A stretch of DNA of 15,309 nt from contig CALGBY010000127.1 of NCBI GenBank assembly GCA_937886445.1, positions 1 through 15,309 on the forward strand, in the 5' to 3' direction. A program made the translations under genes and the position numbers. The notes under the pieces are model-generated. The model was not told the DNA's origin and made no database searches. It worked only from the letters and a program-made list of their open reading frames with translations. The stretch's first letter is position 1, and every line of letters starts with the position of its first letter. This document shows, piece after piece, positions 3,485 to 15,309 of the stretch. This DNA is from an uncultured Clostridia bacterium. GTDB taxonomy: Bacteria > Bacillota > Clostridia > Christensenellales > Aristaeellaceae.

Positions 3485-3510
3485 ACTGATCCATCCTGTT
3501 ACTGAGGCTG

Positions 3511-3552
3511 AAAACAAAAAGACGTCGCCGCGGATGAACTGCCCGGCGGCGT
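3511..3552 (-). terminator. GC-rich hairpin whose U-tract lies on the minus-strand side. It could also act as a weak terminator for the + strand gene ending at 3484.
   Basis: Arms are ACGTCGCCG (3522-3530) and CGGCGGCGT (3544-3552): 9 bp with one G.U pair and a 13-nt loop. The A-tract AAAACAAAAAG at 3511-3521 reads as CTTTTTGTTTT after the stem on the minus strand. The + side is followed by ATTGATCC, which has no T-run. Confidence 0.4.
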
Positions 3553-3789
3553 ATTGATCCGGAGTTGCCTTGTGCCCCGAACGAAAAAACGCTCGGCCCT
3601 GATGCCGAACGGTTGACGAACAAAGCTTCGAAATTTCAGATCGTAAACACACGTGATCAGGCTTTCCCGTCTTTGTCTCAGCAGTAGCCTTCCTTACCGT
3701 ACCACCGTATATATAAACGGAACCGCGGCAATGAACAGGGCCTTCCGGTATGCGGTCCCCGCGCAAATATACTGAAGGGAGAAACCGGT

Positions 3790-4044
3790 ATGAAAACAAA
3801 TGACGCGATGAACACCGTCAAAAAGGATGCTGAGATCCTGAACAGGAATACCCGTGCGCTCAGCGAGGAAGAAAATGCTCAGATCACGGGCGGTCAGAAC
3901 ACAGACGGCAGACATGATGACTATGTAACAAAGATGGTCTGTCCCTGCGGCTATTCTAAAGATTGGTACGGCTATTTTGTGGGCGATGTGTTTGACTGCC
4001 CGAAATGCGGACAACATACCTTAAAGGGAGAAAGAAAGGTATAA
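3790..4044 (+). CDS. Small protein (84 aa) with a double-glycine-type leader and a Cys-rich (CxC-N16-CxxC) core. It is a candidate secreted peptide, bacteriocin or RiPP precursor.
   Basis: GGGAG SD 8 nt upstream of the ATG. Residues 24-35, LSEEENAQITGG, fit the LSxxELxxIxGG leader consensus, with the predicted cleavage after the Gly35 codon at 3892-3894. The 49-aa core contains CPCG...CPKCG. Confidence 0.6.
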   Translation: MKTNDAMNTVKKDAEILNRNTRALSEEENAQITGGQNTDGRHDDYVTKMVCPCGYSKDWYGYFVGDVFDCPKCGQHTLKGERKV

Positions 4045-4211
4045 GCGCGCGGCTTATCGGAAAAGCGAACGCGTCCGTCCCTGCATCGTCGATGTCCGGC
4101 AAAATCTCCGCGCCGGAAGCGATCAGGCAGACATCGGAGCTTCTTCCGGCAGGCAGGTCATAAGTCACACATTGTACCTTCTGCAAGCCGGCGAAAGAGA
4201 CAGAATGATTC

Positions 4212-4251
4212 AAAAGGGGCAGTTCAATAAAGAGCTGCCCCTTTTCATTTT
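4212..4251. terminator. Bidirectional Rho-independent terminator between the convergent small-peptide gene and recG
   Basis: The stem is AAAAGGGGCAG (4212-4222) / CTGCCCCTTTT (4235-4245), with a 12-nt loop. It is followed by TTTTCATTTT on the + strand and preceded by an A-run, which gives TTTTG on the minus strand. Confidence 0.75.
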
Positions 4252-4505
4252 GATAAACAGCACACCGATCACCACTCATACACCGGAAAACAGCCGTTTA
4301 TCACGCCATGACGACAATGGTATTTTGTGCGTCCAAGGTTTTTATGTGCAGGAAACACCGGATTTCTCCCGGGAAATGACATACACAGAAACAGATCCGC
4401 CGCGTTATATCAGGTAAGCCATATTATAACTGATCCGCAGCGGTATCTTTTTATGCGGAAATATATCGGTCAGGCATTTACCGTCATCCCGGCCTGCCGC
4501 GTCCG

Positions 4506-9866: not shown

Positions 9867-9898
9867 GTTTGAAAATAGTGTACGGCCTATTTTCAAAC
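9867..9898 (-). promoter_or_regulatory. Perfect 11-bp-stem hairpin in the PBP mRNA leader, just upstream of the start codon
   Basis: GTTTGAAAATA (9867-9877) and TATTTTCAAAC (9888-9898) are exact reverse complements, separated by a 10-nt loop. Confidence 0.6.
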
Positions 9899-9915
9899 AG
9901 ACATCGGTGCTATAT

Positions 9916-10029
9916 CTGGAGAACTAAAAGTTATAAACTATGAGCTGTAAGCTCATCATGCCTCATCCGGAGAACTAAAAGTTATTAACTATAAGTTAAT
10001 AGTTTTGAACTATGAGCTGTAAAGCTCAT
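9916..10029. repeat. Duplicated AT-rich module (GGAGAACTAAAAGTTATWAACTAT plus hairpin ATGAGCT-GTA(A)-AGCTCAT) in the PBP/purR divergent intergenic region
   Basis: Copy 1 is 9916-9956. Copy 2 is 9968-10029, with an internal expansion that creates a 19-bp palindrome, TATTAAC-TATAA-GTTAATA (9983-10001). The hairpins with 7-bp arms are at 9940-9956 and 10012-10029. Confidence 0.8.
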
Positions 10030-10074
10030 TACCGGAGGACACAGCAAACAAGTGTGCATTGTCTCCGCTTCATG

Positions 10075-10103
10075 ATTATAACATTTTTCGTATGTTTTGT
10101 CAC
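10075..10103 (-). promoter_or_regulatory. Strong sigma-A promoter directed toward the PBP gene
   Basis: On the minus strand: GTGACA (10098-10103), 17 nt, TGtTATAAT (TATAAT = 10075-10080, with an extended -10 TG). This would give a leader of about 210-230 nt containing the duplicated hairpin modules. Confidence 0.6.
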
Positions 10104-10195
10104 AGAAATGAAAAACTTTACAAATATTACACGTTTCAGGATAATTCGCGATATTTGGGGACCCTTTAGAATGCGGGCATCTGTAATTCTTATGA

Positions 10196-10224
10196 AAAAC
10201 CGAACATTTTCAAAATTCGGTATG
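10196..10224 (+). promoter_or_regulatory. PurBox-like inverted pair (candidate PurR autoregulatory operator)
   Basis: AAAACCGAACATT (10196-10208) matches the B. subtilis PurBox consensus AWWWCCGAACWWT, as I recall it, at 13 of 13 positions. An inverted weaker box, AAAATTCGGTATG (10212-10224), has 2 mismatches. Together they form ACCGAA-N11-TTCGGT and overlap the -35 region of the putative purR promoter. Confidence 0.55.
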
Positions 10225-10251
10225 GTAATATTCGTTTGCATGCGGTATAAT
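10223..10251 (+). promoter_or_regulatory. Putative purR promoter
   Basis: TATAAT at 10246-10251, 38 nt upstream of the ATG. The -35 is weak (TGGTAA, 10223-10228, 17-nt spacer). Confidence 0.45.
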
Positions 10252-10289
10252 GATTATGTATACCCCTAGAACGACAGGAGGATGCCGCC

Positions 10290-13198: not shown

Positions 13199-14473
13199 TC
13201 AGTTTTTCAGGCATCCGATCGGCACGACCATCACGCCGTCGGCCCGTTGATATGCACAGTCTCCAACACCTGTCAGGACCATCATAAAGCTCGGCGCTTT
13301 CATTTTATCCGTGTCGATTTTCGCGCTCAGTGTGAGCAGGCTTGCTGCCCCTTCATCGATCAAATGCCTGCCGCCCAGCTTTATTTCTATCAGGCCGTAA
13401 GCACCGTTTCTCAGGTGAACGACGGCGTCACATTCCAGACCGTCCTTATCACGGTAATGATATACTGAACCACCCAGAGAATCGGCATATACACGAAGAT
13501 CTCTTACGCACAGTGTTTCAAAAAGAAGACCCATGGTATTCAGATCGTTGACCAGATCCTGCGGGCCGATCCCGAGCGCGGCTGCGGCAATGGACGGATC
13601 AACATAGTACCGGTTGTCTGTGCTGCGGATCGCTGTTTTGGACCGAAGGTTCGGATTCCACGCGGGCATATCCTCAATGACAAAGATCGTTTTCAGCGCG
13701 TTGATATAGGAGGCGACTGTTTCTTCGCTGATGGTTCTGTCATTTACGGTTATATCCGCGGCGATGACTGTATTGGGCACTTGCGTTCCCTGGTTTCTGG
13801 CGTAGGATCTCATCAGGCGCTTTACGCGTTCGGTGTTTTTTTGCACACCGTCGGCCCGGTTGATATCAGAATGCACTACACCGTCATAGTAGTTGATCGC
13901 CAGATCAAGCGCGATCTCATCCCGCATACCTATCGACTGAGGCCATCCGCCGCGGCAGATCAGGAAGGCGATACGGTCAATATCCAAAGCGGCGCGCCCG
14001 TTCGGCGCGGATTTTCCGCTGAAAAGGTCTCCGAGGCTTACTTCGCCGGTGGAATCTCCGGATTCATACAGGCTCATGGGGCGCATCGTCAGCCATGAAT
14101 AACGGCCGGTACCGGAGTGGGTGATCTCTTTTGTGCTTGCGGGAACCGCGGAACCCGTTAATATGAACTGACCGGCGGCATGACGGTGATCAACTTCAAA
14201 GCGTATCGCGTCCCATAACTGCGGAGCAAGCTGCCATTCATCGATCAGGCGGGGAGTATCGCCCTGCAGGATGCGCCTGGGGCTCAGATCTGCCAGAGAC
14301 AGGTTTTGTGCTTTTGTTTCCGGGTTATCCATGTACAGAATGCTTTTCGCGATCTGCTCTGCCGTGGTCGTTTTTCCGCACCACTTGGGGCCTTCGATCA
14401 GTACGGCGCCGATTCCTTCAAGCTTCCGGGCAAGTATAGCATCGGCAATACGTGGTCTGTATTGATCCTGCAT
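13199..14473 (-). CDS. Stand-alone AAA+ ATPase of the AAA_14/DUF4143 (COG1373-like) family with a C-terminal PD-(D/E)xK nuclease-like motif
   Basis: Walker A GPKWCGKTT and Walker B RLIDEWQ. The C-terminal region has LFETL...ECDAVV...LIEIKLG, an E...D...ExK pattern. The GGAGG SD (14481-14485) is 7 nt from the ATG at 14473 but only 1 nt from the tracked ATG at 14479, so 14473 is favoured. G+C is visibly lower than in neighbouring genes. Confidence 0.85.
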   Translation of the reverse strand: MQDQYRPRIADAILARKLEGIGAVLIEGPKWCGKTTTAEQIAKSILYMDNPETKAQNLSLADLSPRRILQGDTPRLIDEWQLAPQLWDAIRFEVDHRHAAGQFILTGSAVPASTKEITHSGTGRYSWLTMRPMSLYESGDSTGEVSLGDLFSGKSAPNGRAALDIDRIAFLICRGGWPQSIGMRDEIALDLAINYYDGVVHSDINRADGVQKNTERVKRLMRSYARNQGTQVPNTVIAADITVNDRTISEETVASYINALKTIFVIEDMPAWNPNLRSKTAIRSTDNRYYVDPSIAAAALGIGPQDLVNDLNTMGLLFETLCVRDLRVYADSLGGSVYHYRDKDGLECDAVVHLRNGAYGLIEIKLGGRHLIDEGAASLLTLSAKIDTDKMKAPSFMMVLTGVGDCAYQRADGVMVVPIGCLKN

Positions 14474-14531
14474 GTTCATCCCTCCGTTTCCCGGCTCAGT
14501 ATATCACAGAGAATAGGCGATTACAACATTT

Positions 14532-14623
14532 TTCCGACGATTGGCGGAAATTTATTCCGACGATTGGCGAAAAATCATTCCGACGATTGGCGGAAATTTA
14601 TTCCGACGATCGGCGAAAAACGG
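14532..14623. repeat. Four tandem 23-nt direct repeats (TTCCGACGATTGGCGRAAAWTYA), each containing the short inverted repeat TTCCG-N8-CGGAA
   Basis: Units start at 14532, 14555, 14578 and 14601, an exact 23-nt period. Units 1 and 3 are identical. The array begins about 55 nt upstream of the ATPase start codon. Confidence 0.9.
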
Positions 14624-14671
14624 ACCGGCAATATGAATGTCAAAACGGTCACGGCGGTGCCGGTACGCGAA

Positions 14672-14751
14672 ATATTGAAAAGTGGCAAAATATCGGGCAA
14701 AAACATATTGAAAAGTGGCAAAATCGAAGCCTGAAATATATTGAAAAGTGG
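14672..14751. repeat. Three direct repeats of ATATTGAAAAGTGG(CAAAAT) with an exact 33-nt period
   Basis: Copies are at 14672-14691, 14705-14724 and 14738-14751. They lie between the 23-nt array and the VOC gene start (14845). Confidence 0.9.
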
Positions 14752-14844
14752 ATATTCCCGCGCTGTTCGGGTTTTCCTCTTGCCTTTTGACCGGCGAAAG
14801 GGTATGATATCTGCATCAGAATCCAAATCAAAGGAGAGATCATT

Positions 14845-15309
14845 ATGTCTGCACCCTTGCTTGGCGGAGCGTCTCCGTGCCAGGTCGGCATGATCGTACG
14901 CGATATCGAGGCCTCCAAACAAAAATGGGCGGCATTTCTGGGGATGCCCGTTCCGGCTGCCCGCCCCTGCGGCGATTATGCCGTCTGCAAGACGGTTTAC
15001 CGCGGTCAGCCCGCTCCCGAAGCCAACAGCCTGCTTGCCTTTTTTGACCTTCCCAATATCCAGCTGGAGCTGATCCAGCCAAACGAAGCCTGCTCCACCT
15101 GGCGGGATTTTCTGGATGAGCACGGTGAAGGCGTGCATCATTACGGCTATCAGGTGCCGGATATCTTCAAAGCCATGGAGGATATGAAAGCCGCCGGGTA
15201 TGAGCTTGTCCAGTTCGGCTATTACGGCGATGCCAGCGGCGCGTATGCCTATTTCGACTGCACGGCGCAGCTCGGGTGCTTTATCGAATTGCTGTGCAAT
15301 TTTGGCTAA
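14845..15309 (+). CDS. VOC (glyoxalase/bleomycin-resistance/dioxygenase fold) family protein
   Basis: 154 aa with an AGGAGA SD 7 nt upstream. The pattern QVGMIVRDIE...LELIQP...EGVHHYGYQV...CFIELL is typical of the beta-alpha-beta-beta-beta VOC modules in methylmalonyl-CoA-epimerase/glyoxalase-like proteins. The TAA stop is the last codon of the window. Confidence 0.7.
   Translation: MSAPLLGGASPCQVGMIVRDIEASKQKWAAFLGMPVPAARPCGDYAVCKTVYRGQPAPEANSLLAFFDLPNIQLELIQPNEACSTWRDFLDEHGEGVHHYGYQVPDIFKAMEDMKAAGYELVQFGYYGDASGAYAYFDCTAQLGCFIELLCNFG

Follow-up and report, generated by a model that had tools for sequence, protein, structure and literature searches.

A small precursor gene and its product

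The stretch of DNA analysed here, which we call the window, is 15,309 nucleotides long and comes from an uncultured Clostridia bacterium (contig CALGBY010000127.1 of assembly GCA_937886445.1). It carries at positions 3790-4044 of the forward strand a small gene whose product reads as the precursor of an exported peptide, with a 35-residue leader that ends in two glycines (a double-glycine or GG leader) and a 49-residue core with four cysteines. The interpretation that we favour, although with real reservations, is that this precursor is cut and exported by an NHLP-type ATP-binding cassette (ABC) transporter with a peptidase domain (PCAT) encoded elsewhere, giving an unmodified mini-protein of the Cys4 zinc-ribbon fold that probably acts outside the cell. 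An earlier note on this DNA had proposed the 84-residue reading frame with a well-placed Shine-Dalgarno sequence, and translation reproduces that frame exactly. The features of the gene are listed below.

3774-3781, + strand: Shine-Dalgarno-like GAAGGGAG, 8 nt 5' of the ATG, read directly from the sequence
3790-4044, + strand: precursor gene of 84 amino acids with an ATG start and a stop codon at 4042-4044, supported by its translation, by homologues of 58-98% identity and by dN/dS values (nonsynonymous to synonymous substitution) of 0.16-0.25
3790-3894, + strand: 35-residue double-glycine leader (MKTNDAMNTVKKDAEILNRNTRALSEEENAQITGG), aligned without gaps to the canonical leader profile; a helix is predicted with low confidence
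3889-3894, + strand: codons of G34 and G35, with the putative C39 cleavage site directly after them, placed by the invariance of GG
3895-4041, + strand: 49-residue core or cargo, a predicted Cys4 zinc-ribbon-like mini-domain, from the structure prediction score, the core alignment and profile matches
3940-3948, + strand: first cysteine knuckle, C51-P-C53 (CPCG, residues 51-54); C-x-C in the subfamily, C-x-x-C in most relatives
3997-4008, + strand: second cysteine knuckle, C70-P-K-C73 (CPKCG, residues 70-74), from the sequence and the alignments

Four homologues, with 98, 65, 63 and 58% identity, were found in a search of 5.8 billion proteins, and all four retain the reading frame, the TGG motif and the four cysteines. 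About 50 more distant homologues also keep the frame, and the homologue genes are preceded by comparable AAGGAG/AAGGGAG elements. An exact copy of the window protein lies on a further contig of 551 bases (L004). Codon comparison gave dS of about 0.9-1.5 and an overall dN/dS of 0.16-0.25, which falls to about 0.1 in the core and rises to 0.3-0.45 in the leader. The peptide gene is real and under purifying selection; conservation and dN/dS together rule out that the frame is not a gene.

Pfam, NCBIfam and PHROGs assign no significant family to the window protein. A scan of 185,579 species-representative genomes with a narrower core alignment found three loci only, with the pattern FDCP[KER]CGxH, and no GG-leader orthologue; in IMG/VR the core had no match.

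A diverged copy of a widespread leader

Leader residues 24-35, LSEEENAQITGG, fit the double-glycine consensus, as the earlier note had seen, with isoleucine at -4 and leucine at -12. Its claim that only position -7, an asparagine, deviates does not stand, because the threonine at -15 (T21) is non-hydrophobic as well. Homologues P0003 and P0004 and the canonical leader are hydrophobic at -4, -7, -12 and -15 (V, I/L, L, L), and the family consensus has leucine at both -7 and -15. These four hydrophobic positions are contacts for PCAT peptidase domains and matter for ComAB/BlpAB-type PCATs, while some PCATs depend more on N-terminal leader motifs (PMC7018657).

A profile of five sequences, the window protein and its four homologues, matched 1,698 of 1.84 billion cluster representatives at E values up to 0.001. 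The architecture of leader and cargo and the core family described below were read from the best 150 of these 1,698 matches. Among them a near-invariant 35-residue N-terminus, MKTKEELNALKEEVETLNKKLAELTEEELAQVTGG, runs into wholly unrelated C-termini. Residues 1-35 of the window protein align to this canonical leader without a gap (49% identity; hhalign probability 96%, E 2.3e-9), and the switch from conserved leader to variable cargo falls at GG. Both glycines are invariant in 23 aligned full-length members, and GG is present in every core-family sequence listed; right behind it, the window protein has a 5-residue insertion, QNTDG. By this alignment, the window copy has diverged from a leader that is very widespread among uncultured animal-gut anaerobes. 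The window protein matches neither the NHLP model (TIGR03793) nor the Nif11 model (TIGR03798), and judged by these comparisons its leader family is separate from both.

The family is large. Many of the 1,698 representatives align in the leader alone and carry unrelated cargos, and a leader-based profile gathers more than 6,054 clusters at 90% identity, nearly all of them unnamed and from ENA or Logan metagenome assemblies. The description of the peptide as an orphan thus applies to its location and not to its family. Nor does the suggestion of an unrecognised peptide class survive, since one NCBI record of the leader family is already labelled 'bacteriocin'. Cargos lack cysteine in 73 of 101 leader-selected members, and their median length is 30 residues. 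Some have precomputed Pfam matches to a cold-shock domain or LysM. In P0225, P0255, P0242 and at L014 1036-1251, the 35-residue leader is fused to the cold-shock domain (PF00313) and LysM (PF01476). Going by these domain matches, whole small domains, beyond short peptides, ride behind the export leader.

Several observations tie the leader to C39-peptidase exporters. Five relatives exceed the 15.7-bit cut-off of the double-glycine model TIGR01847, at 16.6-18.3 bits: four with the canonical 35-residue leader and P0030, which has a short GG leader. In three independent loci (L015, L019, L029), tandem arrays of leader-family genes adjoin a C39-PCAT and a second ABC subunit. The exporters of L015 and L029 have the Pfam domains Peptidase_C39, ABC_membrane and ABC_tran, and that of L019 was recognized by tblastn with 77% identity to the L029 exporter. 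The last of these matches TIGR03796, 'NHLP family bacteriocin export ABC transporter peptidase/permease/ATPase subunit', at equivalog level (916.8 bits, cut-off 853.3). On its 3' side lies a TIGR03797-like second ABC subunit (695.7 bits against a cut-off of 709.4), and on its 5' side a protein of 139 residues that aligns with the N-terminal part of the HlyD-like model TIGR03794. The three-gene TIGR03794/96/97 cassette has been tied to the long GG leaders of NHLP and Nif11 precursors, whose genes are often distant from the export genes and whose leader conservation seems to be driven by the transporter (Haft et al., 2010, PMC2887384). In loci other than the window, we observed directly the homology of the leader, the invariance of GG, the modular arrangement of leader and cargo and the link between leader and exporter. 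We also considered the N-terminal helix as an encapsulation or targeting peptide; the TIGR01847 matches and the C39 exporters next to leader genes led us to abandon this reading.

The core is conserved and predicted to be a Cys4 domain

As the earlier note had placed it, a cut after G35 leaves a 49-residue core with the CPCG and CPKCG motifs, and the two knuckles are 16 residues apart. By calculation, the core has a mass of 5648.3 Da (5644.55 Da monoisotopic, reduced), a pI of 6.9 and a net charge of about 0, within a full-length precursor of 9.49 kDa. About 50 of the best 150 representatives carry this core. Across 38 aligned cores, M14, C16, C18, C35 and C38 are invariant, T12, G26 and G45 are nearly so, and a tryptophan, aromatic residues and a Phe-Asp pair are commonly present, which gives the signature T-x-M-x-C-x(1-4)-C...C-x-x-C. 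In the numbering of the precursor, T47, M49, C51, C53, C70 and C73 are invariant in the 23 full-length sequences. The first knuckle is C-x-x-C-G in most relatives, whereas it is C-P-C-G in the subclade of the window.

This one core stands behind three types of GG leader: the 35-residue long leader, short leaders of 14-24 residues (P0027, P0030, P0075, P0151) and an 80-residue Nif11-like leader in P0138, which matches Nif11 weakly (17.5 bits against a cut-off of 32.3). Whichever the leader, GG lies a few residues upstream of the core, so that the check on homologues proposed in the earlier note came out in favour of the GG site even with shorter or Nif11-like leaders. No leaderless copy of the core was present among the best 150 of the 1,698 matches. 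Because three GG leader types have recruited the same cargo, the core would be a true export substrate that is cleaved and carried out of the cell, and we regard this as the strongest argument for export.

AlphaFold2, run with a 23-sequence alignment, predicts a beta-rich, globular core in which helix is absent, with predicted local distance difference test (pLDDT) values of 90-95 at residues 45-84 and strands at residues 46-50, 56-60 and 78-83. When a core profile was compared with the sequences of the PDB, the best match was the solved zinc ribbon of SARS-CoV-2 nsp2 (E 0.002; '..TLMKCDHCGETSWQTGDFV..C.FCG'), and generic zinc ribbons ranked below it. Matches to the curated zinc-ribbon models of Pfam and NCBIfam were all below cut-off. 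The confident beta-fold prediction and the profile matches to genuine zinc ribbons support the zinc-ribbon-like core that the earlier note had described.

A relative of this fold occurs in a Faecalibacterium metagenome-assembled genome. At L011 9899-10195, in a prophage and beside a phage primase/helicase, a leaderless reading frame of 98 residues contains three C-x(1,2)-C-G knuckle repeats, the middle one of which is homologous to the window core (hhalign probability 96.9%, E 1.7e-10). From the predicted model and this homology, the most fitting description of the core is a Cys4 mini-domain of zinc-ribbon type that has phage-borne, presumably intracellular relatives. We infer that it binds zinc; two disulfides are the alternative.

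Putative promoters of the leader family and the region upstream of the gene

The motif TGTAAC-N15-18-CGTA, which we take to be a sigmaX/sigmaW-like promoter of the extracytoplasmic function (ECF) type, occurs 12 times in 286 kb of related loci, where simple arithmetic predicts about two by chance. Ten of the 12 lie 60-115 nt upstream of leader-family genes, at the following positions.

L001 9912, L002 1020, L003 5923, L008 2869, L014 971: ECF-type motifs before leader genes
L017 4356, L026 9937, L027 9937, L028 4559, L029 9938: the remaining ECF-type motifs before leader genes

Homologues P0003 and P0004 are among the genes preceded by the motif, and in L029 an ECF sigma factor gene lies between the exporter and the peptide array. 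A likely ECF-sigma regulon accompanies the leader family.

A different element may serve the window gene. No sigma-70 consensus site was found on the + strand. The region directly upstream of the gene resembles that of its 65%-identical homologue:

3706-3789, + strand: upstream and 5' leader region conserved with L006, starting at CGTATATATAAA, a possible -10; read by eye

Compared by eye with L006 at about 845-925, these roughly 85 nt are about as conserved as the coding sequence. This conservation suggests a functional promoter or 5' untranslated element that is unlike the ECF-type promoter of the family.

A single-gene islet of low G+C

The gene lies by itself in DNA of unusual composition, as the earlier note had noticed.

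3485-4505, no strand: low-G+C islet of about 1 kb between a Wzy-like gene and recG, with a G+C fraction of 0.46-0.52 compared to 0.58-0.65 in the flanks
4212-4245, + strand: hairpin resembling a terminator (14-bp stem, T-rich tail on either side), from a terminator scan and as inverted repeat I3 (93% complementary)

The peptide gene is the only gene of the islet, and inspection of the reading frames in 3485-4505 gave no second convincing one. Its G+C content is 46.7%, and 54% at third codon positions (GC3), compared to 57-63% and 78-81% in the neighbouring genes. These are ordinary housekeeping genes, presumably kduD, kduI, recG, a class A penicillin-binding protein (PBP) gene, purR and prfC by their translations, along with a Wzy/O-antigen-ligase-like membrane protein gene, which is supported by a Wzy_C Pfam match at a homologous locus. 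The hairpin stands between the peptide gene and the convergent recG. Because GC3 is 54% compared to about 79% in the neighbours, composition points to horizontal acquisition of the peptide gene. A search for insertion-site repeats flanking the islet gave nothing convincing, and no Rfam family matched anywhere in the window.

Genomic contexts of the relatives

We compared the window with ten core-family loci, nine with homologues (L001-L003, L005-L010) and L004, with the exact protein. No exporter or maturase gene was found in the window or in L001-L010. The contexts differ among themselves, and several are phage-related. In L009 (1728-6100), P0028 is inserted as a moron between a phage distal tail protein (Dit) and a 990-residue tail protein, and upstream of P0002 lie small membrane genes of the holin type, including one with a match to a PHROG that has no assigned function.

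L008 (800-5522) holds about ten GG-leader genes with unusual cargos, core-family members included. The other cargos comprise further Cys4 knuckle pairs, rubredoxin-like and ferredoxin-like sequences and very basic cysteine-free ones. At L008:3248-3460, a short GG leader is fused to a 2x(CxxCxxCxxxC) ferredoxin-like sequence; at L008:4692-4919, the cargo is rubredoxin-like (CxxC...CPGCG); and two copies carry the very basic cysteine-free cargo (…RRRKNTEYRKREKPAEAKKHRY). A conserved 299-residue membrane protein without a Pfam or NCBIfam match flanks GG-peptide clusters in L007 (10168-11067, - strand) and L008 (5534-6433, - strand), and may act in immunity or in processing. A gene on the border of the L008 cluster (1468-2811) encodes a 447-residue protein with a marginal match to the CBAH (choloylglycine/linear amide hydrolase) model, 22.5 bits against a cut-off of 20.4.

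Directly 3' of P0003, in L001 (10493-12505) and L002 (1593-3608), are a small lipoprotein-like gene and a Redoxin/AhpC-TSA thioredoxin-like gene whose product, judged from its N-terminus, is apparently membrane-anchored. The same stretch includes a 49-residue gene and a 300-residue protein with 4Fe-4S Fer4 matches. These genes may serve to handle the redox state of thiols in a secreted Cys4 peptide; the window does not share this gene order.

A proposed mechanism and its alternatives

We hypothesize that an NHLP-type peptidase-ABC exporter, with genes elsewhere in the genome, receives the leader at its C39 cysteine-peptidase domain. Such an exporter would combine a TIGR03796-like PCAT with a second, TIGR03797-like ABC subunit and a short protein of the HlyD type. 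The leader would be cleaved after G35, and the 49-residue cargo would be pumped out and fold into a small, compact Cys4 domain of three strands; zinc would hold it together, or two disulfides in the oxidised form. The role of the cargo would most likely be that of an unmodified, bacteriocin-like extracellular effector between bacteria. The gene itself would have been acquired horizontally, possibly via phage, and would sit as a single-gene islet apart from the export machinery. Cleavage, export, metal binding and function of the window peptide are what we infer here. The secreted precursor with its processing and export genes elsewhere, as the earlier note had proposed, gains support from the leader family, which adjoins C39 exporters in three loci, and from the core-family loci, which have no exporter.

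An important caveat is that a number of results weigh against this proposal. The window leader is polar at two of the four hydrophobic recognition positions (-7 N, -15 T), and TIGR01847 matches neither the window protein nor its isolated leader nor P0002-P0005 at E values up to 10; the check with double-glycine models thus succeeded for canonical relatives and not for the window protein. No C39 exporter was found in the 15.3-kb window or in the ten core-family loci, although this absence also fits export genes located elsewhere. The islet at 3485-4505 has no plausible small membrane-protein frame of the immunity type, and upstream of the gene there is no exact TGTAAC-N16/17-CGTA, only versions with two mismatches (3674, 3683). 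Unlike typical class II bacteriocins, the core is neutral and has no amphipathic or hydrophobic helix, and it is probably not a classical cationic membrane-active peptide. Foldseek found nothing significant for the predicted fold, with a best E of 0.64 against the PDB and 0.41 against the BFVD viral library; the top non-significant PDB matches were MCM N-terminal domains, RbpA, Mcm10 and ribosomal proteins, which we take to contain zinc ribbons. Finally, the L011 homologue is a leaderless and presumably intracellular phage protein, so a cytoplasmic role for this fold exists.

Some of these points would be explained by an intracellular zinc-ribbon protein, such as a regulator or nucleic-acid binder of phage origin, in which the N-terminal helix and GG are a decayed leader or a helix plus linker. 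The loss of hydrophobic residues at -7 and -15, the score below TIGR01847, the faster evolution of the leader than of the core, the missing exporter and ECF promoter, the homologue beside a phage primase/helicase and the neutral, domain-like cargo all agree with such a protein. However, GG is invariant in all family members, and it is difficult to see how one core came to follow three independent types of GG leader unless it is exported. The leader also remains under purifying selection (dN/dS < 0.5) and matches the canonical leader in exact length and register, and core-family members occur in the L008 array of GG-leader genes under a shared ECF-type promoter. We therefore consider an intracellular protein unlikely, although it is the most serious competitor to export.

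Two other alternatives keep export and change what is exported, and both seem improbable to us. If the peptide were a RiPP (made by the ribosome and then modified post-translationally), its four cysteines would be modified by distant enzymes (radical-SAM thioethers as in sactipeptides or ranthipeptides, heterocycles or lanthionines) ahead of GG cleavage and export. The cores are indeed cysteine-rich, there are weak sub-threshold matches to the RiPP-target models TIGR04149 and TIGR04497, and NHLP/Nif11 leaders and the cassette often serve modified peptides with distant enzymes (PMC2887384). However, neither the window nor the related loci examined, the multi-peptide loci L008 and L029 included, showed a radical-SAM, LanM, cyclodehydratase or other maturase gene, and the radical-SAM/lanthipeptide reading was put aside on this ground. 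The core is conserved in the manner of a folded domain (T, M and four cysteines; W, G, aromatics and FD), its structure is predicted with confidence, it is homologous to ordinary zinc ribbons, and the cargos behind this leader are mostly cysteine-free. We give no greater chance to a signalling peptide or pheromone that leaves through this PCAT route and that the producing population itself senses. PCATs do export quorum-sensing GG peptides (PMC7018657), the ECF sigma factor in exporter clusters and the matching promoter at peptide genes suggest a regulatory loop, and a neutral cargo that is not membrane-active fits a ligand. Against this stand the large size of a folded 49-residue domain for a pheromone, core-family genes with no sensor kinase or receptor consistently beside them, and the extreme diversity of cargos behind one leader (> 6,000 clusters, tandem arrays), which resembles an arsenal.

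Relation to known systems and implications

Export of short bacteriocins, pheromones and RiPPs by GG leaders and PCATs is well known. With such peptides (class II bacteriocins, GG pheromones, TIGR01847), the window leader shares its GG end, the hydrophobic residues at -4 and -12 and acidic residues at about -8 to -10, and the leader family shares adjacent C39-ABC exporters, hypervariable cargos behind GG and canonical members that pass TIGR01847. The window leader differs in its length of 35 residues, compared to an average of about 24, and in its conserved N-terminal helix, and the window copy differs further in the polar -7 and -15, in failing TIGR01847 and in having no adjacent immunity or exporter gene. 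Its cargo is neutral and predicted to be a folded Cys4 zinc-ribbon-like domain, whereas class II bacteriocins are cationic and amphiphilic. A zinc-binding, folded mini-protein would be an unusual cargo for this route.

Zinc ribbons of known kinds (rubredoxin-like; nsp2, HVO_2753-type and FmdB-type CxxC_CxxC) have in common with the core two knuckles including CPxCG, a beta-hairpin of about 16 residues between them, three predicted strands and the profile matches. The core departs from them in its first knuckle, C-x-C instead of C-x-x-C, and in the sub-threshold curated matches. To our knowledge, the known examples are all intracellular and none has an export leader.

Gallocin A (PMC10100652) and the bacteroidetocins (PMC6671954) resemble the window peptide, as we propose it, in having a GG leader, PCAT export and an unmodified cargo that depends on cysteines for its structure, but they have one disulfide and are otherwise helical or class IIa-like, whereas the window core has four cysteines in two putative metal-binding knuckles and a predicted beta fold. 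Close parallels are also the NHLP/Nif11 systems (PMC2887384), which share with our leader family a long leader up to GG, hypervariable cargos, many paralogues per genome, precursors often far from the export genes and a TIGR03796 exporter with a TIGR03797-like partner. The leaders, however, are unrelated in sequence and ours is about half as long, the HlyD-like partner is cut down to 139 residues, no thiazole/oxazole-modified microcin (TOMM) or lanthipeptide enzymes were found near the leader-family genes, and many of the cargos resemble small domains (zinc ribbon, cold-shock, LysM).

No description of the family came up in full-text literature searches made with the leader sequence and on GG peptides that are hypervariable or carry a zinc ribbon. 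As far as the searchable literature goes, novelty lies in the type of cargo, in how large the leader family is and in its apparent ECF-sigma control; the mechanism is of a known kind. A broader and more tentative proposal, which we think less likely to be right than wrong, is that uncultured anaerobes of animal guts secrete mini-proteins through a PCAT-based system, apparently controlled by an ECF sigma factor, in which a single 35-residue leader exports thousands of different cargos. These would include small folded domains that are normally cytoplasmic: Cys4 zinc ribbons, rubredoxin-like and 2x[4Fe-4S]-ferredoxin-like Cys motifs, cold-shock domains and LysM. Within this proposal, the zinc-ribbon cargo would be the first metal-knuckle mini-protein shown as a secreted interbacterial effector; it would probably have been recruited from phage zinc-ribbon proteins and be spread by phages.

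The export of the window peptide would extend the GG-leader/PCAT route to a folded, probably metal-binding mini-domain, and would make it possible to ask how much folded structure a PCAT tolerates. The analysis exposes a very large, almost wholly unannotated, metagenome-only leader family with an exporter cassette of its own. For annotation, the conserved leader offers an easy way to find small secreted-peptide genes that gene callers and family models currently miss. Should the cargos be active, gut anaerobes would provide a large natural collection of mini-proteins that can be synthesised cheaply.

Other observations in the window

Two further stretches of the window stand out by their composition. 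A 426-residue AAA-ATPase-like gene at 13199-14479 (- strand) is atypical (G+C 53.7%, GC3 59%) and is followed by lower-G+C DNA at 14480-14850; this region, too, may have been gained by horizontal transfer. An AT-rich gap of 390 nt (9897-10289; 36-43% G+C), which separates the PBP gene from purR, contains two copies of GGAGAACTAAAAGTTAT(A/T)AACTAT and two of the palindromic ATGAGCTGTAA(A)GCTCAT.

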